From a virus (Duplodnaviria; Caudoviricetes), in the IMG/VR virus record IMGVR_UViG_3300032334_001544, positions 1 through 58,298 of that record: 58,298 nt of DNA, one strand, 5' to 3'. The notes beneath the pieces are model-generated. The model did not search any database. It saw nothing but the letters and a program-made list of their open reading frames with translations, and was not told the DNA's origin. Shown one piece after another: positions 7,391-57,266 of this stretch. Position numbers and translations under genes: made by a program. Within the stretch, counting starts at the first letter, position 1; each line of letters opens with the position of its first letter.

Positions 7391-7397
7391 TCTGTCC

Positions 7398-8027: not shown

Positions 8028-8086
8028 CGCCTGTCTGTTGCTCATAATTCTGATTGTACATGCTAGCTAAATCTATCATACCTTGA

Positions 8087-10981: not shown

Positions 10982-10984
10982 TGA

Positions 10985-12369: not shown

Positions 12370-12422
12370 TTGTTACCTTTAGCTTATATAACGTATCTGG
12401 TTGCATGTGCGCAGATATCTGA

Positions 12423-16060: not shown

Positions 16061-16122
16061 TTCCAATTTTCCTTATGTTTGCCTATAATGCCAAGATAAA
16101 CGGACCATCCGTTTAACATATC

Positions 16123-24562: not shown

Positions 24563-25945
24563 TTACTGATTAATTATCGCAGTCTGTCTGTTGTACAGTA
24601 TATATCTTTCAGCGATGGATGCCAGGTCGGCACCTGGTTTTATATTCAACAATGCGATCTGTTTGGCTGCAACAGCTATTTCTGCACTAGTATAACCCTT
24701 GGCAAACAGTTGTTTCTTCCAATCCAGGCCATTATATGCTATCCGTGTATTGAATAATGGGTCCGAAAGATCTATAGCTGCCACAGATGGACTGAGTCCT
24801 GATAATTCTGGCAATGCCATCAGATTATTGGGTTTTGATATATACATTTCTGATAGTTGTACAAGATTATAATCGGCCAACTGGCCCAGAGTGTACTGTC
24901 CCAGATAATTGCTGGCAGATTCAATCTGTTGGACAGTATAGCCTTTGTTATGCAAGACTGCTTGATAACTGTTAGTGGGATACACTTGGTCTCCCAGAGT
25001 TGATAGGATTTTTCCATCACTAGTTAGATCGGCATAGGTGTTAGTTGCGTTACTGACGTTATATGAGCTGCCTGTTGTATCATAAGTTTCTGCTGTGGGA
25101 TACTGATAGTTATTATTCAGAGCAGTATCAGTAGTTACTGATATTGTATTTGCAGGATCTACTATGCTACCCATATAAGGATCTACATTATTATATACTG
25201 GATCAGTGCTTAAAGTAGGCTTGAATACATTATCTACAAGAGGTGTCTCTTCCGAGCTGACTTGGGCAAGTTCCGACACAGTGGCATTATCGTTGGGACT
25301 GGGAAAATTATCGTAACGATCCTGGGTTCCAAAACCAGGAGTAGCCATGGCATTGCCAGTGCTATAGTTCACAGCAGTATAATGCAAGGTCATCTTGGAG
25401 TCCATTATACCTTGACCATCGAAATTATCATGTTGATCATGTGTGAAATTACTGATCACAGGACGCCACAATGTGATGATGCTGCTGTCTGGTCCGTGGA
25501 AACTATAGATGTTTATCTTGTCTAAAAACCAGTTGTTCACACCCTGATCCATACCCCATTGTTTCTGGCTACGGTCGGTGGTGTATCTGTCATCAGTCAG
25601 ATGGTTTGAACTAGCTGTGTACGTGCCATCACGGAAATAATATTGATAGTATTTGGCCCATAGTTTTCTCAGACCATCTGAATTATCATCATGGAAAGTG
25701 ATGGTTACAGGATCATATTTGACTTGTGTCTGTGTCCAGACCCTGTGATTATATTGATTCATGTCTTTAATCACTGGTGTGAATTTGGGTAATTCCACAT
25801 TCTTCACCAGTAGATCTATGTCATCTTTCTCGTTAGTAAAGAAGAAATGTACGTGAAACAGCCACTTGTATTTGGGAGACCGCGCATATTTGTTGCCAAC
25901 AAAAATCTTGCTGGCATGCTGATAATCACGTAATATTTCTTGCAT
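24563..25945 (-). CDS. tail tube-like / baseplate tube initiator protein
   Basis: N-terminal gp19/gp54-like fold (VELPKF, YDPVTITFHDD); follows the tail tube gene. Confidence 0.65.
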   Translation of the reverse strand: MQEILRDYQHASKIFVGNKYARSPKYKWLFHVHFFFTNEKDDIDLLVKNVELPKFTPVIKDMNQYNHRVWTQTQVKYDPVTITFHDDNSDGLRKLWAKYYQYYFRDGTYTASSNHLTDDRYTTDRSQKQWGMDQGVNNWFLDKINIYSFHGPDSSIITLWRPVISNFTHDQHDNFDGQGIMDSKMTLHYTAVNYSTGNAMATPGFGTQDRYDNFPSPNDNATVSELAQVSSEETPLVDNVFKPTLSTDPVYNNVDPYMGSIVDPANTISVTTDTALNNNYQYPTAETYDTTGSSYNVSNATNTYADLTSDGKILSTLGDQVYPTNSYQAVLHNKGYTVQQIESASNYLGQYTLGQLADYNLVQLSEMYISKPNNLMALPELSGLSPSVAAIDLSDPLFNTRIAYNGLDWKKQLFAKGYTSAEIAVAAKQIALLNIKPGADLASIAERYILYNRQTAIINQ

Positions 25946-29600: not shown

Positions 29601-30462
29601 CAACATAAAAGCACATCTTGCTGTTGCGCACGGCTACTGTGACACCAACGATTGCACTGCTATTGATCAGATTCACAAGAGCTGAGACTGTGGGGCTAGC
29701 TGGAACAGTGATCTGTACACCATTGATCCTGAAGCTGTCACCAGCAACCAAGCTGGAATCCATGACAGTGTTGCTGCCTTTGACTGTGGGAACAGCAGCT
29801 TTCCATGCATCAGTACCCACCTGATACCAGTTGTTATCCAATGCTTTCAGATAGACTGGGTTCTTTTGATCAGTGGCTACTACTGCATAATCCCCTATCT
29901 TGCCATAGTTGGGAAGAGGGCGAGTACTGAAAGTATACAGTGATGTGCCAGCATTGCTGGGAATGATGCGATTGGGAGTAATCTTGATAAATTCTTGTAG
30001 TACAGCATCCCATTCAAAGATACCATAATCAGTGGTGTCTGTGTCCTGATAAACTGTCTGATCAGCTGGTGAACCGTAGGGACGATATGCACTGCCTTCC
30101 AGTTGTGTCAGATCTATATTTGTTCTGAGTACATATGCACTAGTGGTCAATCCCAACATGCTATGTGCTGCCATGAGTCCATATTCAGCTAACTCTGAAC
30201 CATAGATACGGTTTCCGCTGTCATTTGATGGGAAGGTGGGAATACCATAATAATTTAATAGTTCACGTTGGCTAGTGACAAGCTGCACTGCATTGGCAGT
30301 GGCTTCAGTGGTGTATGGAGCTATGCCGCCAGCAGTACTGGTTTTATTAGTAGCTGTTGCAATAACAATTAAGGGTACAGTACCAAGACCAGCACTTACA
30401 TAGTTGCTTTCGTCTGTGACTGATACCGATACTCCGGGTGATAGTAATGTTCCTGTTGCCAT
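26680..30462 (-). CDS. tail sheath protein (gp18-like), 1260 aa
   Basis: LLSPGVSV..TDES N-terminus; PWFAPAG..RG, NP, G.KT, DRINVARL, FEPND, CDETNN, P....EFI C-terminal core. Confidence 0.95.
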   Translation of the reverse strand: MATGTLLSPGVSVSVTDESNYVSAGLGTVPLIVIATATNKTSTAGGIAPYTTEATANAVQLVTSQRELLNYYGIPTFPSNDSGNRIYGSELAEYGLMAAHSMLGLTTSAYVLRTNIDLTQLEGSAYRPYGSPADQTVYQDTDTTDYGIFEWDAVLQEFIKITPNRIIPSNAGTSLYTFSTRPLPNYGKIGDYAVVATDQKNPVYLKALDNNWYQVGTDAWKAAVPTVKGSNTVMDSSLVAGDSFRINGVQITVPASPTVSALVNLINSSAIVGVTVAVRNSKMCFYVDDMAESGQTLDASGNVLADGKLYLENITGNFFATAGITVTPTTGSMFNSPLFVAEPHYKEPAWRTGETGTGASGYAQLGIGSPTNIQNIVLQTEGSGYSAAPAVRIGITWNNGITVNLNDDVAINGYHYSVISPGTLGGAAPSPLSTAPQPNGSAVLIFAGIAATAQATLTNGKVTMITVTNQGTGYVTIPQLEIDLPTGDTRRPTGSVWLKTTSVDGGANFDISIYSSNSGAFIKRKAPVYIKGDAEANFGLDKLLGGLAIPAGTLYVLADFGPAGGDYLNYRVMQRQVDGPTNIVGTALNPNFTVNDTFEISVTLPGTPEYSSKYNISMVTPAAGITGASMFVSQLMSANIPYIQAEVNEIGQISITHQAGGVVRMREINNLVTGVPGSALSDAGMTSSVLNIMDSDEVVGEVLGTNWAPAAQLFQQNTMPDIAAPDGTLWYYESPRVIDIMINDGTRWKGYQNVRKDVRGFDLFYTDPNGVIFDVVAPTTQTTGAPLVYGDIWCDTTDLVNYPNLKRYQNILGVDIWVQINNTDRTGSNGIIFADARWDTTGTTDPAIGDFPAVQNLRISDYTDLDCPDATMYPRGMLLFNTRRSSGNIKKYVASKFTNVNYPNKPLPVYQSTWQSYSGIKADGTPHFYRSAQRDIVVSHMRATVDTNVQIREDSRFFNLILCPGYPELSFNLVELNNDRRNTAFIIADTPMRLSSNSSDLVKYLDNTSNTAQDDEAGLTIADPYLAYFYPPAALTNALDGSIGQVVVPMSHAILRVFIRSDQASYPWFAPAGTARGLIDNVSTIGYLDGNSNAFTRVGTQQTLRDLLYTHNVNPVAIFPNLGILNYGNKTRQGINKAMDRINVARLVNYIRYQLEIVVKPLIFEPNDTITRFQAKHIVESMLNTLVVQRGLNDYLVVCDETNNTPTTIDRNELHIDVAIEPIRAVEFIYIPVKILNTGSLQGSAPGLGGVSNTSTSLKV

Positions 30463-44245: not shown

Positions 44246-44418
44246 TAACACCTGAACACATAACCCCTGCCTGCCGGCTGGCCTATGCAAAAGGTTATCT
44301 GGCAGGTTATCACCAACAGCCCAAAGAATGCCCATATCAGGAACCTGATATGGAATTGGCTGCTGCTTGGCTCAGGGGATATGAAATGGCCGAGACAGAT
44401 TGGGGATTGTTCAGATGA
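44242..44418 (+). CDS. ribosome modulation factor (Rmf/CrpP)-like protein, no in-frame ATG (not in ORF track)
   Basis: RLAYAKGYLAG....KECPYQ.......AWLRGY against Rmf RA..RGYQAG..G.....CPY......WLGGW; its stop overlaps the next ATG. Confidence 0.55.
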   Translation: MITPEHITPACRLAYAKGYLAGYHQQPKECPYQEPDMELAAAWLRGYEMAETDWGLFR

Positions 44419-45128
44419 CTGGACAGATAACAGCATATCGCATATTTCCAGATGATAACCGTGTGAGGATCCTACCTGCTCCACGCGAACGTGCCTGGAT
44501 GGATCGGACTACCAGCGAATATGCCTATCGTTGCCTGCCCATGGCCATGGCCAACCAATTGGGTTGGAGCGTGTATCCCAATACCACCATAGCATTGGTA
44601 TGGGATGGCACTGATGCACTGGATGCCATAAAGATAAATGATTGTGATGGTATCGCTGCCAGCATATTTGGTTTTGGTATCGTGACCTTCCATATCATGC
44701 ATCTGATCCAGACCCCTGCAGATGTGAACCTGTTCATCGGTGGGCAAACCAATCATGTGATACCAGGCATACAAGCACTCAACGGTTACATGGAATCAGA
44801 CTGGGCACCTTATACATTCACCATGAACTGGCAGATGACCCATCCAGGTGAAGTGGTGGTGTTCACACCCAATGATGCCATCTGCCATTTCTTCCCTGTG
44901 TCACGTGGCAGCGTGGAAAGTTATAACTTGCAGGTCAAAGAGATCGCAGAAAATCCGGTGTTGGCAGATCAACACGATCAGTTTAACCATAGCCGCAGGG
45001 ATTTCCATGCCAATTTGATGGACCAGCAAGGGCAATGGCAGAAGAATTATTTTCAAGGCAAGTATCCTGACGGCAGCCGTTGCCCTGTCAATCACCAAAC
45101 CAAACTCACATTGAAAGGTCCCAAATGA
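44415..45128 (+). CDS. DUF6065-like protein
   Basis: R.WMD...AYRCLP..MAN..GW, FG.G..TF, E.DW..YTFTMNW, WQK.Y..G. Confidence 0.7.
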   Translation: MTGQITAYRIFPDDNRVRILPAPRERAWMDRTTSEYAYRCLPMAMANQLGWSVYPNTTIALVWDGTDALDAIKINDCDGIAASIFGFGIVTFHIMHLIQTPADVNLFIGGQTNHVIPGIQALNGYMESDWAPYTFTMNWQMTHPGEVVVFTPNDAICHFFPVSRGSVESYNLQVKEIAENPVLADQHDQFNHSRRDFHANLMDQQGQWQKNYFQGKYPDGSRCPVNHQTKLTLKGPK

Positions 45129-45319
45129 TTTACACAATGATAGTGATCACATACATCAACAACATGGGCAACTGGAACATCCATCGCCAGTATTTTACCA
45201 GCCGTGAGATATGTGAGTTCGTGGCAGAGCAGGTCAATGCCAACGGAAAAAACACACGCAACAAGGTACAACAGGCTAAATGTCTGGAAGGCAGACAGGA
45301 CGGAGAGATCATAAACTGA
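45125..45319 (+). CDS. hypothetical protein
   Basis: ATGA overlap; F.S...C..A...C motif. Confidence 0.55.
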   Translation: MIYTMIVITYINNMGNWNIHRQYFTSREICEFVAEQVNANGKNTRNKVQQAKCLEGRQDGEIIN

Positions 45320-46152
45320 TGCGCATACAGATAGCCAGCGACTTCCATCTGGAACACCGCAACGACATCCCTGAGTTCAACAACGCAGGTGCTGATGTAC
45401 TGATCCTTGCTGGCGACATCTGTCAGGCTGAATGGTTTTACAACAATCCACGGGATCGTGTACCTGAGCCAGGAATGAGCAGCAACTGGCGCGGATATGA
45501 TGCTGCCAGGTTCAGGCAATTCTTCCAACACTGTTCAGATAACTGGCGCATGGTGCTGTATGTGTCAGGCAACCATGAGCATTATGATGGTCGTTGGGAG
45601 CGCACAAGCCAAATCCTGCGTACAGAGATGGAAGCATATCACAACATTCGTTATATGGATCAGGATTGCCTGTTATATGAAGGAGTCAAGTTCCTGGGTG
45701 TGCCCTTGTGGACTGACTTCAAGAATGCCGATCCCAATGTCATGTGGACTGCCAAGAGTTTCATGAGCGACTATCGTTGGATCAAACATTTTACAGCTGG
45801 TCAGTGGGGCAAGTTGCGTCCACAAGACACTCTGGAAAAGCATCGTTCAGATGTGGAATATCTCCGACACTGGGTGGAAATTGACAAGACACCCACTGTG
45901 ATTATTGGGCATCATGCACCCAGCTTGCAAAGCATCCATGAGATGTATAAGAATCAGGCTGACATGAACTATGCTTTCTGTTCAGATCTAGATCATATGA
46001 TGTGGGATTACGATCAGATCAAACTGTGGGTGCATGGCCATGTCCACAGTGCTTTCGATTATACTGTTAACCAGACCCGTGTGGTGTGCAATCCCCTGGG
46101 TTATCCTAGAGAACAAAACCAGTTTAACCCAGGGTTGGTTATTGAGGTTTAG
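45319..46152 (+). CDS. calcineurin-like metallophosphoesterase
   Basis: SDFHLE, LAGDI, GNHEHY, LWTDF, HHAPS, HGHVH, NP.GY. Confidence 0.9.
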
Positions 46153-49100
46153 ACCTTGTGTACTATCACGATAGCGGCGGGTGAGCTGGGTGCTGGGCCA
46201 ACGGCGGCAAGGCCTTGTAGATATACATGAGTATCGTCAGCCGACCAGCTTATCTGGTAATAATCGCCATTAGTCACTGCCACATCGATGAATGGTCCTA
46301 CGCCACACACATATCCAGCCACAGAACCCTGTGCTGGTAATGTGAAATAACTGGCTGAGTACGGAATATTGATGCCGTTCTTGCGTATCCAAACCACAGC
46401 ATTGTTTTGTTTGTTCTGTGTGTTCTGGAACTGCAAGCTGTAATCGATCCTGTAAGTTCCTGGATTAGTGAAACGTATCTGGCTGGTGTTGGTGACATAT
46501 ACTCCCAGATTAGCATTAGTGTTAGCCAAGCTGACATTTGCACCCACAGTCAGGTTAGCTTGTACTGTAGTATTATCCCAGAAGCTGCCAAATTGGGTGG
46601 TGTAAGACAATATGTTGGCATTGCTGTAGCTGGTGCCTGTGCCAGTGGGCCCTTGAGCACCGGTTGGACCAGTGATTGTGGACGCTGCTCCTGTGGGACC
46701 ACTTGCCCCAGCAACACCAGTGGGACCGGTTGTGCCATTGCCGCCATTTGAACCAGCCGCACCAGTCGGTCCTGTGACACCTTGGTTTCCTTGAGCACCG
46801 GTGGGACCAGTGACTGTGCTAGCTGCACCGGTGACACCTTGCGGACCTGTGGGACCCGTATGTAATATAGGCAAGTCTGTCAGGTACCTGGCACTGCCCA
46901 GGTAATATGTGGCACTGACATTGCCTGCCACCGATACCCCTGCATCAGTGATTACAGCACGTACATTGTTAGCTTCGGTACCGCCAGTGAAGAAACTTAT
47001 GTGGTTGTCAGTAGTGCTGGTACCTATGGTGAGGTTGCCGCCAGCATTATACAGATAAGCATCGTTGGCACCGCTCAGAGTCCAGCCCACAGCAGTGCCA
47101 TCATAATTGCTGCTGTTGATTCCCATGTCGACAAAATAATTCTCGTCGTTGCCCTGATCGTTAGTGGCTACTATATCCGTAGATGCATTGGTGCCATCAC
47201 TCAGGTTCTGGTTAACTATCTGTTCATAATCATTGACTAATCCAATTGACTGGATGCTGGCATTGGCAAAATTGAAGCCTGTGAAAGCACCACCGAAATG
47301 TGCTCGACCATTGGCAAACAAGTTGCCTGACAGATAAGCATCCGTGGCTATCAGGTGTTCTGTCTGGAATCCAGTGGCATCATCAGTATACCAATAAGGT
47401 CCATGAGGCCCATAAAGACCGTATAGTAGTTTGGTGGAATCTGTACCCAGGTTGGGTCCCAATATGATGCCGCCGCCGCTGATGTCTGCTGGTTGCGTGG
47501 CAGTGTTGCCCAGATAAAGAATGATGCTGTCCAGTGCAGCCGCACCTTGGCTTATGATGTTACCAGCCACGTACAAATTACCTGCGATATAGGCATTGTC
47601 AAATGTGGGACTGTCACCAGGACCGATTTCCTGTGCCAGTTGCAGTCTCAAATTGTTGCTGTAGGGTGTGGCTTCTGACACAGTCAAACTACTGCTCAAA
47701 CTAATTAGGCTGTGGACATCAGTGGTGTCCAGTGCCACATTGCCGGTCTGCCTGGTTTGGTTCTGGATTCCGATGCCGCCCTGGACACTGAACACAGCTG
47801 ATGTCTGATTAAACGCCGTGGTCTGTCTGGTATTGTCAGCAAATGTGATACCGATCTGCGGGTTAAATGTGACAGCGTCTGGTCGTATAAAACTCAATCC
47901 AGTGCTGTCTATCTGTGCGCTGAAGTATCTGGTATATCCGCCAGCATGAGCTGCGTTATAGAATTGCATGGCAGTTGCATGGTTGGCATCTGTGGAATCT
48001 TCTAGTGTAACAAAATCTAGGGTGTGCCCTGCCACTGCACTACCAGTGAATCCGCCAGTATTTTTCCAACTCACTGCACCTATTCTCAGCATGATATCGT
48101 TGGCTTTGCTCTGGGTAGGCGTCTTGGCTGTGCCACGAGCCGATCTGGCAGTGATGGCATTGAATGTGGTGCCGCTGCCAAAGTTGTCCAGATTAAGGCG
48201 TGTGCTGGCATTGCCCCAGAAATCGTTGCCAGTGATGTGCAACATGCCACCGGAATTGGTCACGGGCTGATAACTGCCATCCTGTGATCCGATTATGCTA
48301 AAACCACCTATATCACCAGCATATAGATTGCCAGTATAGATCTGTGTCCTACCAGTGCGGTCCACAGCAAATGCAGGCTTTTCCTGGCTATTCAATACCT
48401 GCAATGGACGATTGATGTTCAGGTTGCCAGTGGCATATCGTGTGCCGATATAGAAATCTTCAGTGGGATTGTTAAGAGCTATGATGTTACTATAAAGTGT
48501 GAACTTGCCCACTGTCAGTCCAGTGCCGCCACCGATATACAGGTTGCCATCACGAGCACCTATGGTCTGATCTGTACCCAAGGTCTCGTCCTGCACATAG
48601 ATAGTGCCAGGACCCACCCACAGATGATGCCAACGACGGAGCGGTGAACCCAGATCATATACATCATTAACATATGGTAAAATACTGCTGCCTGCGATTA
48701 TGTGTGCATTGGCACCTGGCACCAGATCTATGTCTGTATCTGCTAATGTGCTGAGCGTGAGTCCAGAATTTACCACATTTCTACTAGTGTACACTATTAT
48801 ATCAGGTTCAGGTATAACAAACAATCCCTGCAATGTATGGCTGGTAACAACCACATTGGCATTGGCACTGTCAGTGCCTGAAACATTGCCCACGAACAGC
48901 ACAGTGCTGTCTGCAGGCATCCCAGCACCAGTGAGGTGATCGCCTATCTGCAATACTGGTGCAGGTGTGGTGGTAAAACGATAGGCCGTCCAACCCAAAT
49001 CAGCACCTGATATGCCGTTGAGCAGGCCATATTCACCTATATTCAGATTATCTGATGAACTGACGCTGAAGCGATCCACGCTGGCCAATGTGAGATTGGC

Positions 49101-49673
49101 AACAGTAACGGCCACGTTACTGGTACCCTGGAGGATGCTGCCCACTGGTATCATGAGGCCTGGCAAGCTGACTAACCCTGTGCCCATTGGCGCCAATGTG
49201 ATGTCACGGTTATTAATTAATCCACCAATGGTCTGATCATTTATGTACAGGTTACCCAGATCTATCGATCCGTTAAAATTTATCACGGCTGCGCCACCGT
49301 TGGCGAACAGATAATTGTCGCTGTATACCGCGCCAGTGACATGCACATTGGCAAAGGTCACATCATTAAAGGTATTGAGGCTCTGGTCGAAATTATTGAG
49401 AGCAGGACTGCTGTCCACCCAGGTGTTGTCATAAAACACATAGGTGCGGCCACCGTCGGTGTCATACCACAGTTGGCCAGGTTCATCTGTGACAGGTTGA
49501 ACATTACCCATTATGGTGCCAGCCTGGCCGATGATCTTACCACCAGGTACGCCGGTGCCGATCCTCAGGGTATTTGTGTTGGGATCGTACCAGATCCTAT
49601 CTGTTTCACCAACTTTGACACGACCATCCATGTCGTTTCTACGGCTGGTGAAGAAATCCATAATCCATGGCAT
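46149..49673 (-). CDS. tail fibre / receptor-binding protein with collagen-like segment
   Basis: 1174 aa, Gly/Asn/Thr-rich; WYD...LRI.G..PGG N-terminal anchor; GPTG repeats; BclA/C1q-like C-terminal head. Confidence 0.8.
46640..46860 (-). repeat. collagen-like Gly-X-Y (GPTG) coding repeats
   Basis: [10 protein letters not shown]...[10 protein letters not shown]. Confidence 0.85.
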
Positions 49674-49679
49674 ATTGTA

Positions 49680-50051
49680 TTACCCCGCTGGTGATTGGCC
49701 AGCTTGCATGGCTACCTGTAGTCTAGCCCTATCTGATGTTGGTCTTTGTTGTTTTGGGGCATCTGTTTCATCGAACACACTGGCCACGCCAGCTGCACGT
49801 TTAAGCAATTCCAGCTGTTGCTGCAATGGTCCCACCATCATGTCTGTCTCTGCATCCACAGGACCTGCATCCACAGGCTTGACACCCGTGGCAAGTTCTG
49901 GTTGGCTCACAGGATCTGTCGCCATCATAGGTTCTGCTGTGGCCATCTCAGGTTGCGCACCCACTTGGTCAGGGCCAGGCATCTCATCAGGTTGCAGATC
50001 GTCCAGGTTTAAGGTGATGGGTATTTTAACAATGAATTCTCTGGCTCTCAT
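49680..50051 (-). CDS. putative virion protein
   Basis: MRAREF N-terminus; PLQQQLELLK motif. Confidence 0.55.
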   Translation of the reverse strand: MRAREFIVKIPITLNLDDLQPDEMPGPDQVGAQPEMATAEPMMATDPVSQPELATGVKPVDAGPVDAETDMMVGPLQQQLELLKRAAGVASVFDETDAPKQQRPTSDRARLQVAMQAGQSPAG

Positions 50052-50087
50052 ATCTGATCCTTTACCTGATAGAATTATTTATCTATA

Positions 50088-50687
50088 TTAAAAGATCATA
50101 CTCGCCAAACGCCATCCGTCATTGTATATCAGGTGTACCACACCGCCATCGATGCTGATTATGGCTCCATCTATGTCACTATCTATGGTGCCTCTGATGT
50201 GTATGTTATTGATACTGGCCAATTGGCTTTGATCTTTTATCACTAACTTCTTGCCATTGCTCATGGCAACCAATACTATATCCACACTGCCTGGATAGTT
50301 CACACCTATGTAATAGTCTGAGCTATTGCAGGTGTAACTACCAGATGTAACCAGCCTGGTTGCACTGTAATCACCTCCAGCAGGCCCAGTGGGGCCAACC
50401 AGTGCTGGGCTGCTGTCCACCCAGGTGTTGGCATAGAACACATACATCCTGCCGCCGTTGGTGTCATACCACATGCTGCCAGACTGGCTAGTCACAGGCT
50501 GTGTATTGCCCACGACCACACCACCACTGCTGGTGATGGGTTTGCCACCAGGTGTGATGCCATCGCTTATCCGCAGGCTGTTGGAATCACTGTCATACCA
50601 GATGTGGTATAATTCACCCAGATGGGATCTGCCCTGACCAGGTTTGAAGTCTTTGTAACTGCTAAAGAGTTTCTGGATGAATGGCAT
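50088..50687 (-). CDS. short fibre-like protein paralogous to the N-terminus of the 1174-aa fibre
   Basis: Shared WYD...LRI..G..PGGK and GNxQPVT...[21 protein letters not shown]. Confidence 0.7.
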   Translation of the reverse strand: MPFIQKLFSSYKDFKPGQGRSHLGELYHIWYDSDSNSLRISDGITPGGKPITSSGGVVVGNTQPVTSQSGSMWYDTNGGRMYVFYANTWVDSSPALVGPTGPAGGDYSATRLVTSGSYTCNSSDYYIGVNYPGSVDIVLVAMSNGKKLVIKDQSQLASINNIHIRGTIDSDIDGAIISIDGGVVHLIYNDGWRLASMIF

Positions 50688-50690
50688 GGG

Positions 50691-50996
50691 TCACCCCATG
50701 GGCATCTGAGAGACTGTGGTTATGGCACCAGTGGCAGGTTGGTTCTTGTTGGCTCCGGATTTTACCGTGTCCAACATCTGTTGTAGTGGAGGAGTCCAGA
50801 TCACGTTGCCTTCGCTGTCATAATTCTCACTGGGATCGGTACCATCATCTGCCTGTGGTTCAGGCGCATTGGCAGCAGCATTAGTGATATTGACCACCAC
50901 AGGTGGCTGGGCTGGTTGAGCAGCGGGGCTTGGTTGTTGACCCATCTGTTGAACTATGGCTGATGCTAATTGTGTGATGAATTCGTGGGCTCTCAA
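50691..50996 (-). CDS. putative virion protein, paralog of 49680..50051
   Basis: TTG start, RAHEF and PLQQML motifs; TATAAATA box upstream. Confidence 0.55.
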   Translation of the reverse strand: MRAHEFITQLASAIVQQMGQQPSPAAQPAQPPVVVNITNAAANAPEPQADDGTDPSENYDSEGNVIWTPPLQQMLDTVKSGANKNQPATGAITTVSQMPMG

Positions 50997-51118
50997 TTAC
51001 CTGCTCCTCAGATTATATTTATACGTGTGGACAAGGGTTAGATAAAGAGCAGATATGGCTTGACACCACACAGACGTGTAGTATAGTCGTGATGTAACAG
51101 AGACAAGGAGGACGGACC

Positions 51119-51502
51119 TTGTTACCAGTACCTTATCTGCCTGCACAAGTGCAGCGATACTTCCATGAGTATCACGATTACGAATACTTTCCACAGCCAG
51201 AGTTCGTGGAAGCTAGAGAATATACTGTGATAAATCCTGCAGAAGTCAAAGCCCGGATCCTGGACTATCTGGGACAAGTGCTGGCCAGATGCTGGTGTAA
51301 CTCAGAGCTGATGGATCTGCTCAAACAGAACCCACATGAATGCCTGTTGCAACTGGGCATAATCCTTCCTGAGGAACTGAACATCCTGGTGGAAGAACGC
51401 AAGAACAATCCCAATAGGCCCAGGCTGGTTGTGTATGAGAAGTCAGGCACAATGACCAAACGTGTTTGTAGCCTGCAACTGATGATGACAGCAGGCAGGT
51501 AG
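51119..51502 (+). CDS. NHLP-leader / nitrile hydratase alpha N-terminal-like protein
   Basis: QVLARCW.N.EL...L.QNP..CL..LGI.LPE.L.I.VEE; TTG start with AAGGAGG RBS; TTGACA promoter at 51061. Confidence 0.5.
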   Translation: MLPVPYLPAQVQRYFHEYHDYEYFPQPEFVEAREYTVINPAEVKARILDYLGQVLARCWCNSELMDLLKQNPHECLLQLGIILPEELNILVEERKNNPNRPRLVVYEKSGTMTKRVCSLQLMMTAGR

Positions 51503-51537
51503 TTTCTGCATATCAGATGTCACAGAAGAAATGTCTT

Positions 51538-51571
51538 TTGTAATATGATTGTAACATTCGTAATTTATAAT
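51538..51571 (+). promoter_or_regulatory. Pho box promoter
   Basis: TTGTAAT-ATGA-TTGTAAC (11-bp period) ending exactly 10 nt before a perfect TATAAT; no TTGACA. Confidence 0.7.
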
Positions 51572-51599
51572 ACCTTAAGTAAACGAAGAGATATAATCA

Positions 51600-52502
51600 A
51601 TGCAACCATTTCCAGATTTCAAATTCATGATCAATACACTTAACCGCGACCTAGAGAACAGTGTATTTGCACATATACCATTTGCCATACCAAAAAGTTA
51701 TACTGTGGCACTAGGCCAGATAGGCGATTTAGAAATCAGATTGGCACAAACACGCAAAGAAGTCAAACAGGCACAAAAACTTCGCTATCAGATATTCCAC
51801 AAAGAACAGGGTGCCATTGCCAGTTTGGAATGTATGCTGAAGCAAAGAGATATAGATCCCTATGACGCATATTGTGATCATTTGCTGGTAGTGGATACCA
51901 AATATCCCAGAAAGAAGGTGCCAGGCGTAAAACAGTCATACAAAGAAAAAGTAGTGGGCACATACCGCCTACTCAGACAAGATATAGCAGATAAGCATGT
52001 GGGCTTCTACAGCCAAGCAGAATTTGATGTAGACAGCCTCATCCAGCGACACCCAGGCAAGCGTTTCTTAGAGCTAGGGCGTAGCTGCGTTGATAAAGCA
52101 TACCGCGACAAACGCACAATAGAACTATTGTGGCGTGGCATCTGGTGGTATGTGACAGAACATAAGATAGATGCCATGTTCGGCTGTGCCAGCTTTGAAG
52201 GCACAGACATAAAAAAACTATCTCAGCAACTGAGCTTGCTACAAGATGTTGCCAGTGCTGCACCTGAATGGCAAACATCTGCACATCATTCAGATTTTGA
52301 CACATCAGATAAAATTACATATAATGATGCCAAGAAGGTGTTGCACCAGTTGCCCACCTTGATAAAAGGTTACATGCGCTGTGGTGCCAGATTCGGCACT
52401 GGTGCTGTTATAGATCGTGAATTCAATACCACAGATGTTCTGGTTTTGTTGCCTGTCACAGACATAACTCCTAGATATCGTGAACACTTTACCATGAATT
52501 AA
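51600..52502 (+). CDS. olsB: L-ornithine N-acyltransferase (ornithine lipid synthesis, GNAT)
   Basis: AQKLRYQIF, D.D.YD..CDHLLV.D, VVGTYRLL, FYSQ.EFD, ELGRSCV, FGCASF, LP.LIKGY.R.GA, D..FNT.DV. Confidence 0.8.
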   Translation: MQPFPDFKFMINTLNRDLENSVFAHIPFAIPKSYTVALGQIGDLEIRLAQTRKEVKQAQKLRYQIFHKEQGAIASLECMLKQRDIDPYDAYCDHLLVVDTKYPRKKVPGVKQSYKEKVVGTYRLLRQDIADKHVGFYSQAEFDVDSLIQRHPGKRFLELGRSCVDKAYRDKRTIELLWRGIWWYVTEHKIDAMFGCASFEGTDIKKLSQQLSLLQDVASAAPEWQTSAHHSDFDTSDKITYNDAKKVLHQLPTLIKGYMRCGARFGTGAVIDREFNTTDVLVLLPVTDITPRYREHFTMN

Positions 52503-52521
52503 GCAAACAAAGGAGTCAACA

Positions 52522-53439
52522 ATGCTTAAACGGATTGCAATAGCACTAGCCGGACTACTAACTGCGACTGCTGTAAATGCAGCAGATATTTCAGGAGCAG
52601 GGGCAACATTCCCTTTCCCCATCTATGCTAAGTGGGCAGATGCCTACAAGACAGAAACTGGCAATAGCCTTAATTATCAGAGCATAGGTTCAGGTGCTGG
52701 TATCAAACAAATTATAGCCAAAACTGTAACATTTGGTGCATCAGATATGCCACTGGATCAGAAGGAATTGGACAAGCACGGTCTAGTGCAATTTCCCACA
52801 GTGATTGGCGGCAATGTCATTGTTGTTAATATTGATGGCGTTGCAGCAGGTGAATTGGAATTAGATGGTGCTACTGTGGCAGATATCTACTTGGGCAAGA
52901 TTACCAAATGGTCAGATGCTAAAATTGCCGCACAGAATCCTAAAGTGAAACTACCAGATACTGCCATTACTGTGGTCCGTCGTAGTGACGGATCAGGCAC
53001 CACATATGTGTTTACCAAATATCTCAGTGAAGTCAGCAAGGATTGGGCAGACAAGATTGGATCAGGCACAGCAGTGGAATGGCCAGTGGGCGTTGGTGCC
53101 AAAGGCAATGACGGGGTAGCAGGCAATGTCAAGATGACCAAGAACAGCATCGGCTATGTGGAATATGCTTATGCCAAACAGAACAGTCTGGCACATACCA
53201 CCATTGGTGGCAAGCAACCAGGAAAAGCAACATTCCAAGACAACAGCTGGCCCATCACTGCACCCACATACATCATCATGTACAAGCAACCAGCAGATGC
53301 TAATGCCAGCCGAGAAGCCTTGAAGTTCTTTGAATGGGCTTATGCCAAGGGGGATGCCATGGCAGATGCACTGGATTATGTGCCACTGGATAGCAAGCAA
53401 AAGTCAGCAGTAAAAGAGATCTGGACGGCCATTAAGTAA
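52522..53439 (+). CDS. pstS: phosphate-binding protein PstS
   Basis: Signal peptide, GAGATFP, YQSIGSGAG, FGASD, RSDGSGTT, GKGN-like loop, IGYVEYAYA. Confidence 0.95.
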   Translation: MLKRIAIALAGLLTATAVNAADISGAGATFPFPIYAKWADAYKTETGNSLNYQSIGSGAGIKQIIAKTVTFGASDMPLDQKELDKHGLVQFPTVIGGNVIVVNIDGVAAGELELDGATVADIYLGKITKWSDAKIAAQNPKVKLPDTAITVVRRSDGSGTTYVFTKYLSEVSKDWADKIGSGTAVEWPVGVGAKGNDGVAGNVKMTKNSIGYVEYAYAKQNSLAHTTIGGKQPGKATFQDNSWPITAPTYIIMYKQPADANASREALKFFEWAYAKGDAMADALDYVPLDSKQKSAVKEIWTAIK

Positions 53440-53445
53440 GTTTGC

Positions 53446-54219
53446 ATGGCACAATATCATTCAGTCTTTATCAGCGATGTTCATTTGGGTACCAAAGGCA
53501 GCAAAGCTGAACTATTAGTGGCATTCCTCCGTGAGGTGGAATGCCATAATCTATTCCTGGTGGGCGACATATTCGATGGTTGGCGACTTAAAAAGAACTG
53601 GTACTGGAACGAACATCACAGCACCGTGGTACAGAAGGTGCTCAGGATGGCCCGTAAAGGCACAAAGGTATATTATATTCCTGGCAATCATGACGAGTTC
53701 ATGCGTGAATTCCTGGAATATAATTTCGGCAGCATAGAACTACACAACGAAATGACCTATACAGGTGTCAATAAAAAACAATATATTGTCATACATGGTG
53801 ACAAATTTGACTTTGTCACACTCAACATGAAATGGCTGGCACACATAGGTGACCAGGGCTATACGCTGTTGCTAAACCTCAACACTGTGTTACACTGGAT
53901 CATGGCCAAACTCAAATTGCCTTATTGGAGCCTGAGCAAATGGGCCAAGAGCCAGGTCAAACAAGCAGTTAATTTCGTAGGCGATTATGAGGCCAGCTTG
54001 GTAAATTATGCCAGGATCAAACATGCAGATGGCATCATATGCGGTCACATACACAGTGCCAACATCAGTACAATTAATCACATTGAATATATGAATTCCG
54101 GCGATTGGGTTGAGAGTTGCACAGCCTTAGTTGAGCACACCGATGGTCTCTGGGAAATAATTACATGGACAGCAAATGAAGATAACACTAGTAACAGACA
54201 CATGGACACCCAGCATTAA
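53446..54219 (+). CDS. plcP: PlcP-type intracellular phospholipase C (LpxH-like metallophosphoesterase)
   Basis: FISDVHLG, LVGDIFDGW, GNHDE, HGD.FD, WSLS, CGHIH, YMNSGDWVESCTALVE; adjacent GT4 gene. Confidence 0.75.
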   Translation: MAQYHSVFISDVHLGTKGSKAELLVAFLREVECHNLFLVGDIFDGWRLKKNWYWNEHHSTVVQKVLRMARKGTKVYYIPGNHDEFMREFLEYNFGSIELHNEMTYTGVNKKQYIVIHGDKFDFVTLNMKWLAHIGDQGYTLLLNLNTVLHWIMAKLKLPYWSLSKWAKSQVKQAVNFVGDYEASLVNYARIKHADGIICGHIHSANISTINHIEYMNSGDWVESCTALVEHTDGLWEIITWTANEDNTSNRHMDTQH

Positions 54220-55186
54220 TGGTGTTGTAACAACATTAGTTAATACAGTGGAACACCTGCAACAATTAGGACATGATGTCCAGATCATAGAACCTGGACA
54301 GTTTTGCACTGTGGGATTGCCAGGCTATCAGGAAGTCAGATTAAGTTGGGACATCTGGCGTGTGGGTAAACTGATAGCACAGTTTGATCCTGATGCCATA
54401 CATATTGCCACTGAAGGACCACTGGGGCTAGCTGCCAGATGGTATTGCAAGGTGGACAAACGAAGTATACCACATAACACCAGCTACCATACAAAGTTTC
54501 CTGAATACATGAGCCATCATTATAAGATTCCAGAATCATGGAGCTATTGGTGGATGCGTGTGTTTCACAAGTTCAGCACAAAAGTGTTGGTGACTAATCA
54601 GGACATGCAGGCAGATCTCACACAGCGTGGTTTCCAGAACTTGGCCATATGGAATCGTGGTGTCAATCGCGACCTGTTTAATCCCCAGAGACGCAAGAGA
54701 ACCAGCTATCAGGGACCTATTATACTCTGTGTGAGCCGTGTGAGTAAAGAAAAGGGACTGGAGGACTTTTGCAACCTGCAGGTAAAAGGCACCAAAGTTC
54801 TAGTAGGTGATGGCCCCATACTTGCAGAACTGAAAAGAAAATATCCAGATGTCATATTCACAGGTGCCAAGACAGGCACTGCATTGGCTGAATATTATGC
54901 TGCTGCTGATGTATTCGTGTTTCCCAGCAAGACCGATACATTTGGTGTTGTCATTTTGGAAAGCATCGCATCAGGTACACCAGTAGCTGCTTATCCTGTT
55001 ACAGGCCCCAGAGATGTTGTTATAAATGATGTCAACGGGTATATGGATGACGATTTGACAACTGCGGTTAAACGTGCTATTGTCTGTGATAGAATCCAGG
55101 TAAGGCACAGCAGTGAGCAATATGACTGGGCAGCTTGTACAGAAACTTTTATAAAAAACCTGAAAATAATTGAAAAAAACAATTGA
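54176..55186 (+). CDS. GT4 glycosyltransferase, Agt-like glycosyl-diacylglycerol synthase
   Basis: TD.W.P.INGVV.TL, HIATEGPLG, YHTKFPEY, W.RGV, ADVFVFPSKTDTFG.V.LE..ASGTPVAAYPV.GP; overlaps plcP. Confidence 0.75.
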   Translation: MKITLVTDTWTPSINGVVTTLVNTVEHLQQLGHDVQIIEPGQFCTVGLPGYQEVRLSWDIWRVGKLIAQFDPDAIHIATEGPLGLAARWYCKVDKRSIPHNTSYHTKFPEYMSHHYKIPESWSYWWMRVFHKFSTKVLVTNQDMQADLTQRGFQNLAIWNRGVNRDLFNPQRRKRTSYQGPIILCVSRVSKEKGLEDFCNLQVKGTKVLVGDGPILAELKRKYPDVIFTGAKTGTALAEYYAAADVFVFPSKTDTFGVVILESIASGTPVAAYPVTGPRDVVINDVNGYMDDDLTTAVKRAIVCDRIQVRHSSEQYDWAACTETFIKNLKIIEKNN

Positions 55187-55212
55187 CAGATGTTGTCAGT
55201 AGTGTATAAATA
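55183..55212 (+). promoter_or_regulatory. promoter of the RNA cluster (sigma70-like plus late TATAAATA)
   Basis: TTGACA-N16-TATAAATA. Confidence 0.7.
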
Positions 55213-55242
55213 TATAGTAAGTTAAACAAACGGAACGAAGAA

Positions 55243-55320
55243 ATGTTTATGTCTCAAGAACCGAACCAGAATATTTGCAATTGGTATGCCCGTCATACCT
55301 CAGGGGTCCTTGTGGCATGA
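55243..55320 (+). CDS. putative attenuator leader peptide, 25 aa
   Basis: MFMSQEPNQNICNWYARHTSGVLVA; its 3' end forms the 5' arm of an antiterminator. Confidence 0.5.
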   Translation: MFMSQEPNQNICNWYARHTSGVLVA

Positions 55321-55346
55321 TGTGAACGCACATCATCGTGATACAA

Positions 55347-55375
55347 GAACCCCGGTGTCGAACCCGGGGTTTTTT
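55347..55375 (+). terminator. intrinsic terminator (attenuator)
   Basis: AACCCCGG/CCGGGGTT stem plus TTTTT. Confidence 0.8.
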
Positions 55376-55379
55376 CATG

Positions 55380-55705
55380 GACTAACAGGCAGTTGCTCCC
55401 TGTGCATAAGAGCAACCAGTGACTGGTACTTGAGCCTCATGGCTGAATAGGTGGTTTCCAGCATTGCAGGAGAGATTGTCTCTCCACAGATACATCTGTG
55501 TGTATCTGTGAAGTGACATACAACCGCCCAGGGCGGACCAAGTTGTGGGTGGAGGTAACCCTCAGTGGAGCAGGCCACTCAGAAACATTCCTGCTGTGTT
55601 GGACCTGTTACAAGGTCTGGGTAAGGGCGATCAAAAGCCAGTGTGGCAGCGGTAGAGGGGGCTGGCCACATCAGATTTTTCACAGCCAAATCTCAGCTGT
55701 GATAT
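55380..55705 (+). ncRNA. putative large structured ncRNA, class unknown
   Basis: GC-rich stretch with no convincing ORF, many hairpins and a long-range helix, between the attenuator and tRNA-Asn. Confidence 0.5.
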
Positions 55706-55715
55706 ATAAGAATGA

Positions 55716-55791
55716 TTCCCGATAGCTCAGCTGGTAGAGCATCTGACTGTTAATCAGAGTGTCCCTGGTTCGAGCCCAGGTCGGGGAGCCA
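55716..55791 (+). tRNA. tRNA-Asn(GTT)
   Basis: Cloverleaf; TCTGA-CTGTTAA-TCAGA; GGTTCGA; CCA end. Confidence 0.95.
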
Positions 55792-55796
55792 AATTT

Positions 55797-55870
55797 ATCT
55801 CGTAAGTGTTACGGTAGCACATCAGTCTCCAAAACTGAGGGCGTAGGTTCGACTCCTACACGGGGTGCCA
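55797..55870 (+). tRNA. tRNA-Trp(CCA)
   Basis: TCAGT-CTCCAAA-ACTGA; GGTTCGA; CCA end. Confidence 0.9.
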
Positions 55871-55889
55871 GAATATAAGTAGCCATAAC

Positions 55890-56498
55890 ATGTCCATACC
55901 TAAGATATTGATACAAACCAGCCGTGATCCATTACCTGAATATGTGACCCATATGATCCAGGACAAGTTGCCTGCAGGTTGGCATTATCAACATTTCAAC
56001 CATGAACAACGGGAACAATGGCTACAGCTGAATGCCCATCAGTTATTTCCTGACATCATGTCAGTCTATCACAGATTACCCACAGGTGCTCACCAATCAG
56101 ACCTGTTCAGGTATTATTTCCTATATCTCACAGGGGGCATGTACCTGGATAGCGATGCCATGCTGGAACAGCATGCAGATCAGATCATTAGAGATGCAGA
56201 TCTGGTAGTAGTGGTAAACCAACATGGCAGCACATTTAACGGATTTATAGCTGCTGAACCTGGACATGCCATGTTGCTGGCAGCACTGACAGATGTGTAT
56301 CATACAGACCCAAATTATCTGAGACATGATTACCTGTTGTTCTGTCGCAACCTGTATAATATGATCAGCGTACACAGCACCAGCCGAACACGCATACTCA
56401 TGGAAGATCAGGTCACCGCTGAAGGTTGGGGTAGTTTCGCTGGAAGTGAATGCGTGGTGATGCATTACCCCAATACCAAGATAATTCCTCAAAGATAA
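55890..56498 (+). CDS. glycosyltransferase (GT32/DxD sugar-binding)
   Basis: IPK...QT, SDLFRY..LY..GG.YLDSD, NGF.A..P.H. Confidence 0.8.
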   Translation: MSIPKILIQTSRDPLPEYVTHMIQDKLPAGWHYQHFNHEQREQWLQLNAHQLFPDIMSVYHRLPTGAHQSDLFRYYFLYLTGGMYLDSDAMLEQHADQIIRDADLVVVVNQHGSTFNGFIAAEPGHAMLLAALTDVYHTDPNYLRHDYLLFCRNLYNMISVHSTSRTRILMEDQVTAEGWGSFAGSECVVMHYPNTKIIPQR

Positions 56499-56501
56499 TA
56501 C

Positions 56502-56577
56502 GGCCTTGTAGCTCAATCGGGAGAGTGCCAGCCTGTCACGCTGGAGGTAGCCGGATCGAAACCGGTCAAGGTCGCCA
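56502..56577 (+). tRNA. tRNA-Asp(GTC)
   Basis: CCAGC-CTGTCAC-GCTGG; T-loop ATCGAAA; CCA end. Confidence 0.9.
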
Positions 56578-56629
56578 ATTTTGTGGTTGACAATATGATG
56601 ACCTATGTTATATTCGTAATATGATGTTA

Positions 56630-56706
56630 GGCCACGTAGCTCAGCCGGATAGAGCACAGGTTTCCTAAACCTGGGGTCGCAGGTTCAAGTCCTGCCGTGG
56701 TCGCCA
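56630..56706 (+). tRNA. tRNA-Arg(CCT)
   Basis: CAGGT-TTCCTAA-ACCTG; GGTTCAA; CCA end; own TTGACA promoter at 56587. Confidence 0.9.
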
Positions 56707-56711
56707 ATATT

Positions 56712-56794
56712 GGGGCGGAAGTATCAAGGTGATACCGGGGACTGTAAATCCCCCGCTTAAAGCACGCCTGGTTCGATTCCAGGACGCCCCACCA
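56712..56794 (+). tRNA. tRNA-Tyr(GTA)
   Basis: GGGGA-CTGTAAA-TCCCC; long variable arm; GGTTCGA; ACCA end. Confidence 0.85.
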
Positions 56795-56797
56795 AGT

Positions 56798-56892
56798 TTG
56801 CGTCTAGTGTAATGGTAGCACAGGAAATCCGAGACGCCGAGAGGTGGAGTAGGTTTCAAAATGCCAAGAGCGGTTCGATTCCGCAGCGCAAA
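56798..56892 (+). ncRNA. tRNA-like RNA with replaced anticodon arm
   Basis: D-arm TAGTGTAATGGTAGCAC and T-arm GCGG-TTCGATT-CCGC present; extended central stem with GAGA tetraloop; no CCA. Confidence 0.5.
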
Positions 56893-56899
56893 AGAGTTT

Positions 56900-57006
56900 G
56901 ATGCGTTATCGAGCCTTAATGGGGTAATGGTGCCCTGCCTGTGAGGTGGCTCCCGGTACAGTGCCTCCAAAACACTGTGCAGGAAGGATTCGAGCGCCTA
57001 CGCATC
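56900..57006 (+). ncRNA. atypical tRNA-Trp-like RNA with enlarged D region
   Basis: GATGCGT/ACGCATC closing stem; ACAGTG-cCTCCAAAa-CACTGT arm; degenerate TTCGA loop. Confidence 0.45.
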
Positions 57007-57191
57007 TTAAGAGTTTGCAGTGAAAAGGCTGCGTCGGCTGCACTGACCCCTATGCCCTATGCTGGCCAGCGTCTACCGGGCGTGGTTAGGGACCATGTGC
57101 CACTGCAAAACAGAATAGAGAGATTGTAGGTGGACCTGTAAAAATTGCCGTTGGTGGTAATGTGACTGGGTTGTAACCTTCATTAATTTAC

Positions 57192-57266
57192 GAGGATATG
57201 GCCGAGTGCTTTAGGCAACGATCTGCAAAATCGTTTAGATTGGTTGAATTCCAATTATCCTCTCCA
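57192..57266 (+). tRNA. tRNA-Cys(GCA)
   Basis: ACGAT-CTGCAAA-ATCGT; GAGGATA/TATCCTC; TCCA end. Confidence 0.9.

Follow-up and report, generated by a model that had tools for sequence, protein, structure and literature searches.

A phage gene block, olsB-pstS-plcP-agt, predicted to join membrane lipid remodelling to phosphate capture

Can a phage carry the means by which phosphate-starved bacteria renovate their membrane lipids? The question is raised by a block of four genes, olsB-pstS-plcP-agt, on the virus contig IMGVR_UViG_3300032334_001544, a complete record consisting of one linear stretch of 58,298 nucleotides (nt), which was analysed in full and is called the window here. The four open reading frames (ORFs) lie on the plus strand at 51600-55186, directly after tail-fibre genes of the opposite strand. 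They are olsB (51600-52502, 300 amino acids (aa), with the ATG at 51600 as the first start codon past the upstream stop), pstS (52522-53439, 305 aa), plcP (53446-54219, 257 aa) and agt (54176-55186, 336 aa), with gaps of 19 and 6 nt between the first three and an overlap of 44 nt between plcP and agt. An earlier note on this DNA had described the same spacing and common orientation, which match the ORF list exactly; its left edge, 51538, is out of frame with the first ORF and falls in the control region at 51503-51599. The answer that we favour, with a probability of about 0.65, is that the block is a phage copy of bacterial phosphate-starvation lipid renovation and phosphate capture, which would act in an infected Gram-negative host.

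Identity of the four gene products

Tests by hidden Markov model (HMM), motif, phylogeny and synteny uphold the four gene identities assigned in the earlier note. For the phosphoesterase the choice lies between PlcP and LpxH. The protein matches PF00149 (48.4 bits) and lies far under the cut-offs of the LpxH families (NF003743, 55.7 against 134 bits; TIGR01854, 47.0 against 190). It shares 23% identity with E. coli LpxH (b0524) over 119 aa, and a sequence search of the PDB gave 0 matches at E<=1e-3, despite the many LpxH structures held there. With the plcP-type genes of five bacterial genomes the LpxH model scored 39.5-52.8 bits and reached its cut-off in none of the five (0/5), while the E. 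coli protein scored over it; among 13 genomes of one bacterial order none exceeded the cut-off either. End to end, the phosphoesterase is 47-54% identical to PlcP-type proteins of Rhizobiaceae, Rhodobacteraceae and other Alphaproteobacteria (the best 80 of 156 confirmed bacterial loci), and of 401 genomes drawn evenly from the same phylum 124 had a homologue, none of them above 54%. The homologue in Phaeobacter (52%) is followed by a gene of the DUF3419/BtaA family and then by a methyltransferase. This is the layout of the plcP-btaA-btaB (type-1) context in Phaeobacter sp. MED193, a strain for which PlcP function has been demonstrated, according to the part of Sebastian et al. 2016 (PMC4796936) that was available.

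The metal-binding residues D11, H13, D41, N81, H82, H117, H201 and H203 are invariant in an alignment of 32 sequences. An AlphaFold model (predicted local distance difference test, pLDDT, 80.2) has a metallophosphoesterase core and a helical insert at residues 118-191, the latter of low confidence. In a Foldseek comparison with the PDB its top 24 matches were all LpxH (E from 3e-12, template modelling (TM) score 0.50-0.56, identity 18-21%), so that the model is consistent with an LpxH-like enzyme acting on lipids but does not tell PlcP from LpxH activity. By its sequence relationships the phosphoesterase is predicted to be PlcP-type and not LpxH; in the placement that the earlier note had proposed as a check, it groups apart from true LpxH by HMM score, identity and tree.

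The fourth product has the GT-B architecture of family GT4 glycosyltransferases (PF13439, 76.7 bits, residues 14-166; PF13692, 73.9 bits, residues 181-302; full length 336 aa). As described in the available part of PMC8231724, members of the GTcp/Agt clade have about 334 residues and the motifs GRVAXEKN and FPSXTDTFG, share 46-58% identity with one another and less than 25% with other GT4 enzymes, and use a His104-Asp256 dyad, with Asp where GT4 enzymes usually have Glu. The same source reports that GTcp activity is lost on mutating G16, G82, G85, R190, K195, T257, F258, G259 or E264 (PMC8231724). The window protein has FPSKTDTFG at position 249, an exact match to the second motif, and its residues G16, G81, G84, H105, R188, K193, D254, T255, F256, G257 and E262 are conserved in phage and bacterial homologues, the equivalence with GTcp being set by motif position and not by alignment with GTcp itself. 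One full-length homologue, 44-48% identical, is found in each of 10 of the 30 plcP-bearing genomes, including an Agrobacterium sp. (Rhizobiaceae); these values only just reach the published range, and they come from these homologues in place of GTcp and Atu2297 themselves. The first Agt to be characterised came from Agrobacterium. No Agt homologue was found in the roseobacters searched, which is consistent with their use of betaine lipids, and no Agt match above 34% was found in GenBank phage records. The signature residues of the clade point to an Agt-type enzyme; the comparison with other GT4 proteins that the earlier note had called for thus finds the Agt/GTcp signature, FPSKTDTFG and the His-Asp dyad, in place.

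OlsB matches PF13444 (101 bits) and passes the Brucella-type equivalog NF052555 (327.3 against 320 bits). It is 50-54% identical to named OlsB proteins of Hyphomicrobiales by alignment (55-57% by BLASTP). About 20 metagenomic OlsB clusters at 64-100% identity form a phage-like group, and a protein 100% identical to that of the window lies on a metagenome contig of 74,446 nt. No OlsB match was found in 50,697 GenBank phage records, and a two-pattern scan of the 2.9 million contigs of IMG/VR gave 3 distinct loci.

PstS scores 367.3 bits against a cut-off of 339 with NF008171 and 327.7 against 205 with TIGR00975, and matches phrog_5385 (E 8.5e-65). Its N-terminus, MLKRIAIALAGLLTATAVNA followed by ADISG, resembles a Sec signal by eye, which suggests putative export. 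The protein shares 38% identity with cyanophage PstS and 50% with enterobacterial and Campylobacter-phage versions, and belongs to a large metagenomic family (63-96% identity) in which its best 120 homologues are all metagenome proteins; its sequence is of proteobacterial type. Known phage pstS genes rely on the host transporter and come without a PstCAB of their own. Searches of the window (58 kb) and of two relatives described below (L001, 183 kb; L118, 31 kb), all three of them fragments, gave no PstC/A permease (PF00528), no ABC ATPase (PF00005) and no OlsA-type acyltransferase (PF01553). Control searches with PF01553, PF00528 and PF00005 were positive in 10, 14 and 14 of 14 genomes. These negatives agree with the earlier note, which had reported no OlsA or PstCAB in the window; CheckV estimates the window at about 14% of the genome.

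The block in phage genomes

The block is resident in the phage and is not host DNA. In sequencing run X1, probably the source sample of the window, a 23,225-nt Logan contig, which is an independent assembly of probably the same data, spans 49500-55790 with 0 differences and links the tail-fibre genes to the lipid block. Pieces about 90-95% identical to the window were found in a lake-water run of a different study, one of them crossing the pstS-plcP junction; the other runs that contain parts of the stretch, in small shares, are mostly labelled freshwater or lake water. No RNA dataset was listed among them, a blank that does not bear on expression, and the uncovered stretches in runs X2, X3 and X5 likewise carry no weight. 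The GC content of the block genes is 43.0-46.5%, compared with 40.6-51.4% for the structural and replication genes of the phage and 60-61% for the nearest bacterial plcP genes. The earlier note had named mis-assembled host DNA as a possible refutation of its proposal; what is found instead is contiguity with phage genes both in the independent assembly and in diverged relatives.

The synteny search in viral genomes that was proposed earlier recovers the same four-gene order on two diverged phage-like contigs. The 31-kb IMG/VR contig L118 encodes proteins 73, 84, 55 and 75% identical to OlsB, PstS, PlcP and Agt of the window, and the 13.5-kb metagenome contig L146 encodes proteins 72, 85, 44 and 68% identical, in the same order. 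A third contig, L147, ends after olsB-pstS. The plcP copies are far more diverged than their neighbours, which suggests that plcP has been exchanged within the module. Among the other metagenome loci kept (n=78), olsB stands alone in 77. The one exception, the metagenome contig L200 (GC 60%, bacterial-looking), has plcP-agt and olsB within 3.3 kb, with products 48, 40 and 52% identical to PlcP, Agt and OlsB of the window, and is a possible bacterial precedent for the three-gene association. For the closest metagenomic relatives, on contigs of 74,446, 24,357, 34,613, 19,137, 22,829 and 349,339 nt, the longest contigs behind the OlsB, PstS and PlcP matches agree in length, which is only a hint that the three genes co-occur there.

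The relative L001, a 183-kb contig rated 54% complete whose terminase large subunit (TerL) is 82% identical to that of the window, carries olsB-plcP-agt without pstS. In L001 a conserved small ORF, orf127, and olsB are followed by 495 nt with an unrelated ORF (5571-5930, no NCBIfam match) and then by plcP-agt. The same variation is seen close to the window itself. Run X2 comes from a second sample of the study that probably supplied the window, and on one of its contigs, 853 nt long and about 91% identical, position 52500 runs on to 53442, with ten other letters in place of the 941 nt that contain pstS. Since L001 and the X2 variant lack pstS alone, pstS is a gain/loss cassette between the olsB stop and the plcP start. 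The four-gene operon of the earlier note is thus present as described, but pstS is not a fixed part of it and is separable from an olsB-plcP-agt backbone.

The genes of the block are under purifying selection. Compared with L001, the ratio of nonsynonymous to synonymous substitution rates (dN/dS) is 0.083 for orf127, 0.107 for olsB, 0.059 for plcP and 0.099 for agt, at dS values of 0.9-2.2 that are partly saturated; for pstS, compared with L118, it is 0.033, with dS saturated.

The phage plcP genes appear to form an old lineage of their own, within the limits of trees whose root is insecure and whose bacterial rows are those most similar to the window PlcP; the statement rests on branch support. 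In a quick tree of 119 distinct rows, all 31 viral rows (31/31) and three short contigs from metagenome-assembled genomes (MAGs) fall in one clade (Shimodaira-Hasegawa approximate likelihood-ratio support, SH-aLRT, 99); E. coli LpxH, the sole outgroup, has a branch length of 10, and the root is not secure. A mixture-model tree of 58 chosen rows separates 18 viral rows and the MAG contigs L054 and L096 from 38 bacterial or bacterial-like rows by a branch supported at 100/99. Members of the viral clade are 38-87% identical to one another and include the cultured Pelagibacter phage Mosig. A TerL homologue is present in 12 of 36 records with a viral plcP; the 12 include the two records, of 167 kb and 282 kb, whose completeness is put at 90% or more. 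L054 and L096 are filed in bacterial MAGs and have a GC content of 34-35%, with PlcP inside the otherwise viral clade; a comparison with the viral loci found nothing in common outside plcP. They may be phage fragments binned in MAGs, or they may come from a bacterial source lineage.

In these viral loci plcP is almost always paired with some glycosyltransferase (34 of 35). An Agt-like GT4 gene lies just downstream in 19 loci, a gene of glycosyltransferase family GT2 ends at the plcP start in 15, and one locus has neither. Because two unrelated glycosyltransferase families sit at the same phosphoesterase, the pairing argues that glycosylation of the predicted diacylglycerol product is a coupled reaction that selection keeps.

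Other neighbours of viral plcP were also recorded. A protein with an adenylate/guanylate-cyclase domain is encoded beside plcP-agt in two other viral lineages (L002:134-1216 and L003:7746-10696; also L006 and L007), and in L003 it has a CHASE2 sensor domain. A RimK-type ATP-grasp protein adjoins plcP-agt in L003, L005, L006 and L007. A phosphomannomutase-family gene (PF03332) lies directly 5' of plcP-agt at L011:5316-6014 and also in L012, L015 and L017, and may help to supply the sugar donor.

Control sites and the predicted phosphorus supply

The 97-nt spacer 5' of olsB (51503-51599) contains a Pho-box-like direct repeat on the plus strand, TGTAATA-TGAT-TGTAAC at 51539-51555, with an 11-nt period; nine nucleotides past it is TATAAT (51566-51571). 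The repeat is the sole match to TGTMAYN5TGTMAY in the 58-kb window, where 0.40 were expected, a count that carries little weight because the pattern was shaped after the site was seen. The spacer of L001 shares 91% identity with it and has the repeat in the same form. Support that does not depend on this site comes from L118, which has TGTCATCATACTGTTAT before olsB, a TGTCAT-type Pho-box-like site with 1 mismatch, and TGTCATCATAGTGTCAT between pstS and plcP, a TGTCAT-N5-TGTCAT site with 0 mismatches that lies ahead of a small acidic ORF. The L118 locus holds 4 matches to the Pho-box pattern (1.69 expected), and we take its sites to be close to the enterobacterial type of Pho box. The acidic ORF behind the perfect site (L118:8836-9190) has about 90 aa, largely Asp and Glu. 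In the divergent intergenic region between pstS and plcP of Mosig (L036, MT647606.1, about 4870-5000) there are repeated TTAAC elements, two of them 11 nt apart, together with TATAAT; these presumably resemble the cyanobacterial Pho box. PhoB control of the block through the Pho-box-like sites is a reasonable inference.

A phosphate theme is suggested by the position of pstS exactly between olsB and plcP, by the Mosig pstS that adjoins a plcP homologue and by the Pho-box-like sites. On the reading that we favour, PstS would be exported to the periplasm and would feed the host PstCAB importer, while PlcP would split membrane phospholipids into diacylglycerol and a phospho-head group. Agt, which would be translationally coupled to PlcP, could convert the diacylglycerol to glucosyl- or glucuronosyl-diacylglycerol, so that the bilayer survives, and OlsB would begin the synthesis of phosphorus-free ornithine lipid, to be completed by the host OlsA. 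The net effect would be that phosphorus from the membrane and from outside the cell reaches the nucleotides needed for a very large phage genome, with the lipid response kept running after shutdown of host gene expression. Expression would probably be tied to host PhoB through the Pho-box-like sites. The lipid activity, the phosphorus gain and the nature of the host are all deduced here from homology.

Several points weigh against this reading. PlcP would free a phospho-head group and not phosphate, and a phosphatase would therefore still be needed; none that completes the step was identified, the metallophosphoesterase at 45280-46152 being at most a candidate. OlsB alone would give only lyso-ornithine lipid, and a search of 58, 183 and 31 kb gave no OlsA. 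OlsB passes its equivalog by only 7 bits and fails the Rhodobacter-type NF052554 (215.7 against 350), so that its acceptor may be an amino acid other than ornithine; glutamine lipid is made by relatives in this family. In Agt the first motif departs from the published form, reading SRVSKEKG at 187 in place of GRVAXEKN: R, V, E and K are kept, G is changed to S and N to G, while the bacterial homologues have GRVA/SxEKN. Among the nearest bacterial genomes plcP adjoins agt in only 1 of 80 loci. The placement of the phosphoesterase goes through relatives of the characterised SMc00171 (S. meliloti), MED193_17359 (Phaeobacter) and PA3219 (P. aeruginosa), with the phage proteins in a sister clade of their own, and that of Agt goes through the GTcp motifs, at one remove from PB7211_960 and Atu2297. 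The Pho-box-like site of the window is degenerate (TGTAAT/TGTAAC) and its pattern post hoc, and the PhoB site of the host may differ.

Among the alternatives, the most probable one, which we still regard as unlikely, keeps the same enzymes and places the benefit in a changed envelope (a block to superinfection, deterrence of grazers or membrane stability until lysis) and not in phosphorus. Replacement of phospholipids by glycolipids or aminolipids would alter outer-membrane proteins and receptors. The available parts of two bacterial studies report that phage attachment in Ruegeria pomeroyi is influenced by aminolipids (PMC9938194) and that lipid renovation in P. aeruginosa alters membrane proteomes and possible phage receptors (PMC9804370). 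The block adjoins tail-fibre genes, and the counterpart region of pelagimyophages gathers glycosyltransferases thought to alter the host surface, as far as the accessible part of PMC7029224 goes. The variants without pstS, L001 and the X2 contig, also keep the lipid genes without a gene for phosphate uptake. Against this, the repeated linkage to pstS (in the window, L118, L146, L147 and Mosig) and the Pho-box-like sites tie the block to phosphate stress. The envelope and phosphorus readings are compatible, and both could hold.

A true LpxH acting with a lipopolysaccharide (LPS) glycosyltransferase on lipid A or LPS is, in our judgement, very improbable. It would account for the automatic naming of homologues as 'UDP-2,3-diacylglucosamine pyrophosphatase LpxH' and for the nearest solved fold of the phosphoesterase model; virus surveys also file lpxH under LPS biosynthesis, and one phage paper groups lpxH and mgs with surface-modification genes, according to the portions available of PMC10653327, PMC9611531 and PMC13384950. 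The fold similarity is expected in any case, because PlcP belongs to an LpxH-like family. The low equivalog scores, the 23% identity and the long branch of E. coli LpxH speak against LpxH; the nearest kin are alphaproteobacterial and of the type shown to be PlcP, whose genomes (0/5) do not reach the LpxH cut-off, and the GT4 has the Agt-specific, Asp-containing FPSxTDTFG. We give almost no credence to the view that the block is bacterial DNA misjoined to phage, or recent host cargo without function. All four genes do have bacterial homologues, and the record is a linear fragment. Such an artefact would have to recur on three diverged contigs (L001, with its TerL, L118 and L146) and in the X1 contig, which runs from the fibre genes to the block without a difference and probably comes from the same sample. 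It would also have to match the GC content of the phage backbone, about 15 points off that of the nearest bacterial genes, and to show dN/dS values of 0.06-0.11; no sampled bacterial PlcP is closer than 54% (124 matches, 401 genomes).

Phosphate-starvation remodelling thus remains our preferred reading, and it can be set beside several known systems. In the bacterial 'type 2' layout of plcP-agt (available part of Sebastian et al. 2016, PMC4796936; agt is PB7211_960 in SAR11 HTCC7211) an LpxH-like phosphoesterase is likewise followed by a GT4, and the plcP-agt/GTcp system, in the available part of PMC8231724, is alike in its FPSxTDTFG-bearing GT4, its link to phosphate stress and, perhaps, its upstream Pho-box-like sites. 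Unlike these, the window block is phage-encoded, its PlcP belongs to an almost all-viral clade and is at most 54% identical to sampled bacterial proteins, olsB and pstS are added in the same block, and the first UDP-sugar motif is altered (SRVSKEKG). Compared with alphaproteobacterial OlsBA, the OlsB equivalog is passed but no OlsA partner was found. True LpxH (E. coli b0524; 5K8K, 5B49, 6PH9) shares the metallophosphoesterase core with a helical insertion and the metal-binding motifs; the window PlcP differs in scoring far under the family cut-offs, in its neighbours and in its nearest relatives.

Among phages, Zeng and Chisholm reportedly found in 2012 that cyanophage pstS and phoA are driven by the host PhoBR system. 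Cyanophage PstS, like that of the window, would depend on host PstCAB and boost the phosphorus supply in phosphorus-limited hosts, but the window pstS lies inside a lipid-remodelling block that the matched cyanophage records lack; among them only S-SRM01 has a plcP-like gene (33%). In the cultured myovirus Pelagibacter phage Mosig EXVC030M (MT647606.1), pstS adjoins a PlcP homologue (Mosig_00119/Mosig_00120; 49% identity) annotated as 'putative UDP-2,3-diacylglucosamine hydrolase'. Unlike in the window, the two Mosig genes are divergent, and there is no agt-like GT4 or olsB in the locus (+/-5 kb). The Mosig genome announcement does not mention the pstS and plcP genes, and in its accessible part the pelagimyophage survey (PMC7029224) makes no mention of phage PlcP, Agt or OlsB. 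The PMC and bioRxiv papers searched gave no published account of PlcP, Agt or OlsB encoded by a phage, in keeping with the earlier note, which knew of no description of the full module in a phage.

A wider proposal, to which we give slightly less than even odds, is that large phages of phosphorus-poor waters possess an old PlcP lineage of their own, almost always coupled to a glycosyltransferase and set in a modular 'phosphorus island' in which olsB and pstS come and go as cassettes, even inside one population, and that infection turns host phospholipid into phosphorus for phage DNA. If so, the remains of the cell would be rich in glycolipids and aminolipids, and a sizeable part of the 'lpxH' signal of viromes and of the non-phosphorus lipids of phosphorus-limited waters would be virus-driven. 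Phage phosphate-stress genes have so far concerned uptake and scavenging (pstS, phoA); re-plumbing of the membrane would be a second, potentially large, internal source of phosphorus. By simple arithmetic a 400-kb double-stranded genome contains about 800,000 phosphorus atoms per copy, and a small Gram-negative cell has, to an order of magnitude, a few million phospholipid molecules. The proposal would re-label a gene that virome surveys place under lipopolysaccharide synthesis and would bear on glycolipid-to-phospholipid ratios as markers of bacterial phosphorus stress. Mosig, with its pstS-plcP pair, offers a cultured handle, and the viral enzymes are natural variants for study of what distinguishes PlcP from LpxH. 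The gain and loss of pstS within the samples of one study makes cassette selection testable against phosphate concentration.

Flanks of the block and the rest of the contig

The block probably begins upstream of olsB, at orf127 (51119-51502, plus strand, 127 aa) and a promoter-like site. At its head position orf127 is 86% identical in amino acid sequence to the ORF at the same position in L001; it has no Pfam match, resembles an NHLP leader only weakly (24.2 bits, cut-off 50.9) and matches nothing but clusters without a name in the Atlas. The candidate sigma-70-type promoter, TTGACA-16 nt-TATAGT at 51060-51087 (plus strand; 11 of 12 positions), is a consensus match only, and promoter-like sites in the region are no commoner than in shuffled sequence (10 found, 11.9 expected). 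Beyond the block, 164 nt past the agt stop, a hairpin resembling an intrinsic terminator (CCCCGG, 8-nt loop, CCGGGG, followed by TTTTTT; 55350-55375, plus strand) was recognized by eye and is not listed by the automated scan. Six tRNA genes (Asn, Trp, Asp, Arg-CCT, Tyr and Cys) lie immediately 3' of the block at 55716-57266 (plus strand), and between the second and third is a 202-aa ORF (55890-56498) with a DXD sugar-binding glycosyltransferase region (PF04488, 48.1 bits). An Rfam scan of the window found tRNAs only.

Phage hallmark genes were called with PHROGs and are all on the minus strand. They encode UvsX (13903-14973), a gp32-type single-stranded DNA-binding protein (15047-16066), TerL (18501-20069, E 1.7e-115), the tail tube (24563-25945), a tail sheath of 1,260 aa (26680-30462, E 6e-182) and a collagen-repeat tail fibre of 1,174 aa (46149-49673). 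TerL is closest to that of the PA5oct group, giant phages of Pseudomonas (54%), and of a 469-kb Sinorhizobium phage (49%). The window is a fragment of a giant freshwater myovirus estimated at roughly 340-400 kb, a size that follows from these TerL relatives together with L001, whose 183 kb are rated 54% complete.

Other gene groups of the contig include a nucleotide-sugar cluster at 3882-13229 (minus strand), with two epimerase/dehydratases, a C-methyltransferase (PF08484), a nucleotide-sugar epimerase (phrog_540) and a weakly GT2-like ORF; possible roles of the cluster are to glycosylate the surface or DNA, or to provide sugar donors. At 44400-46152 (plus strand) a DUF6065 protein (246 bits) is followed by the second metallophosphoesterase (45280-46152; phrog_1649, E 1.8e-51; PF00149, 32.8 bits), which is about 74% conserved in L001. 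The 199-aa ORF at 50088-50687 and the 1,174-aa fibre, both on the minus strand, have a common N-terminal motif. Contigs of runs X1, X3 and X5 show a joint at 50473 that goes back on the sequence (at 50471 in X2), which fits a short repeat common to the two fibre-like genes (49500-50700, minus strand).

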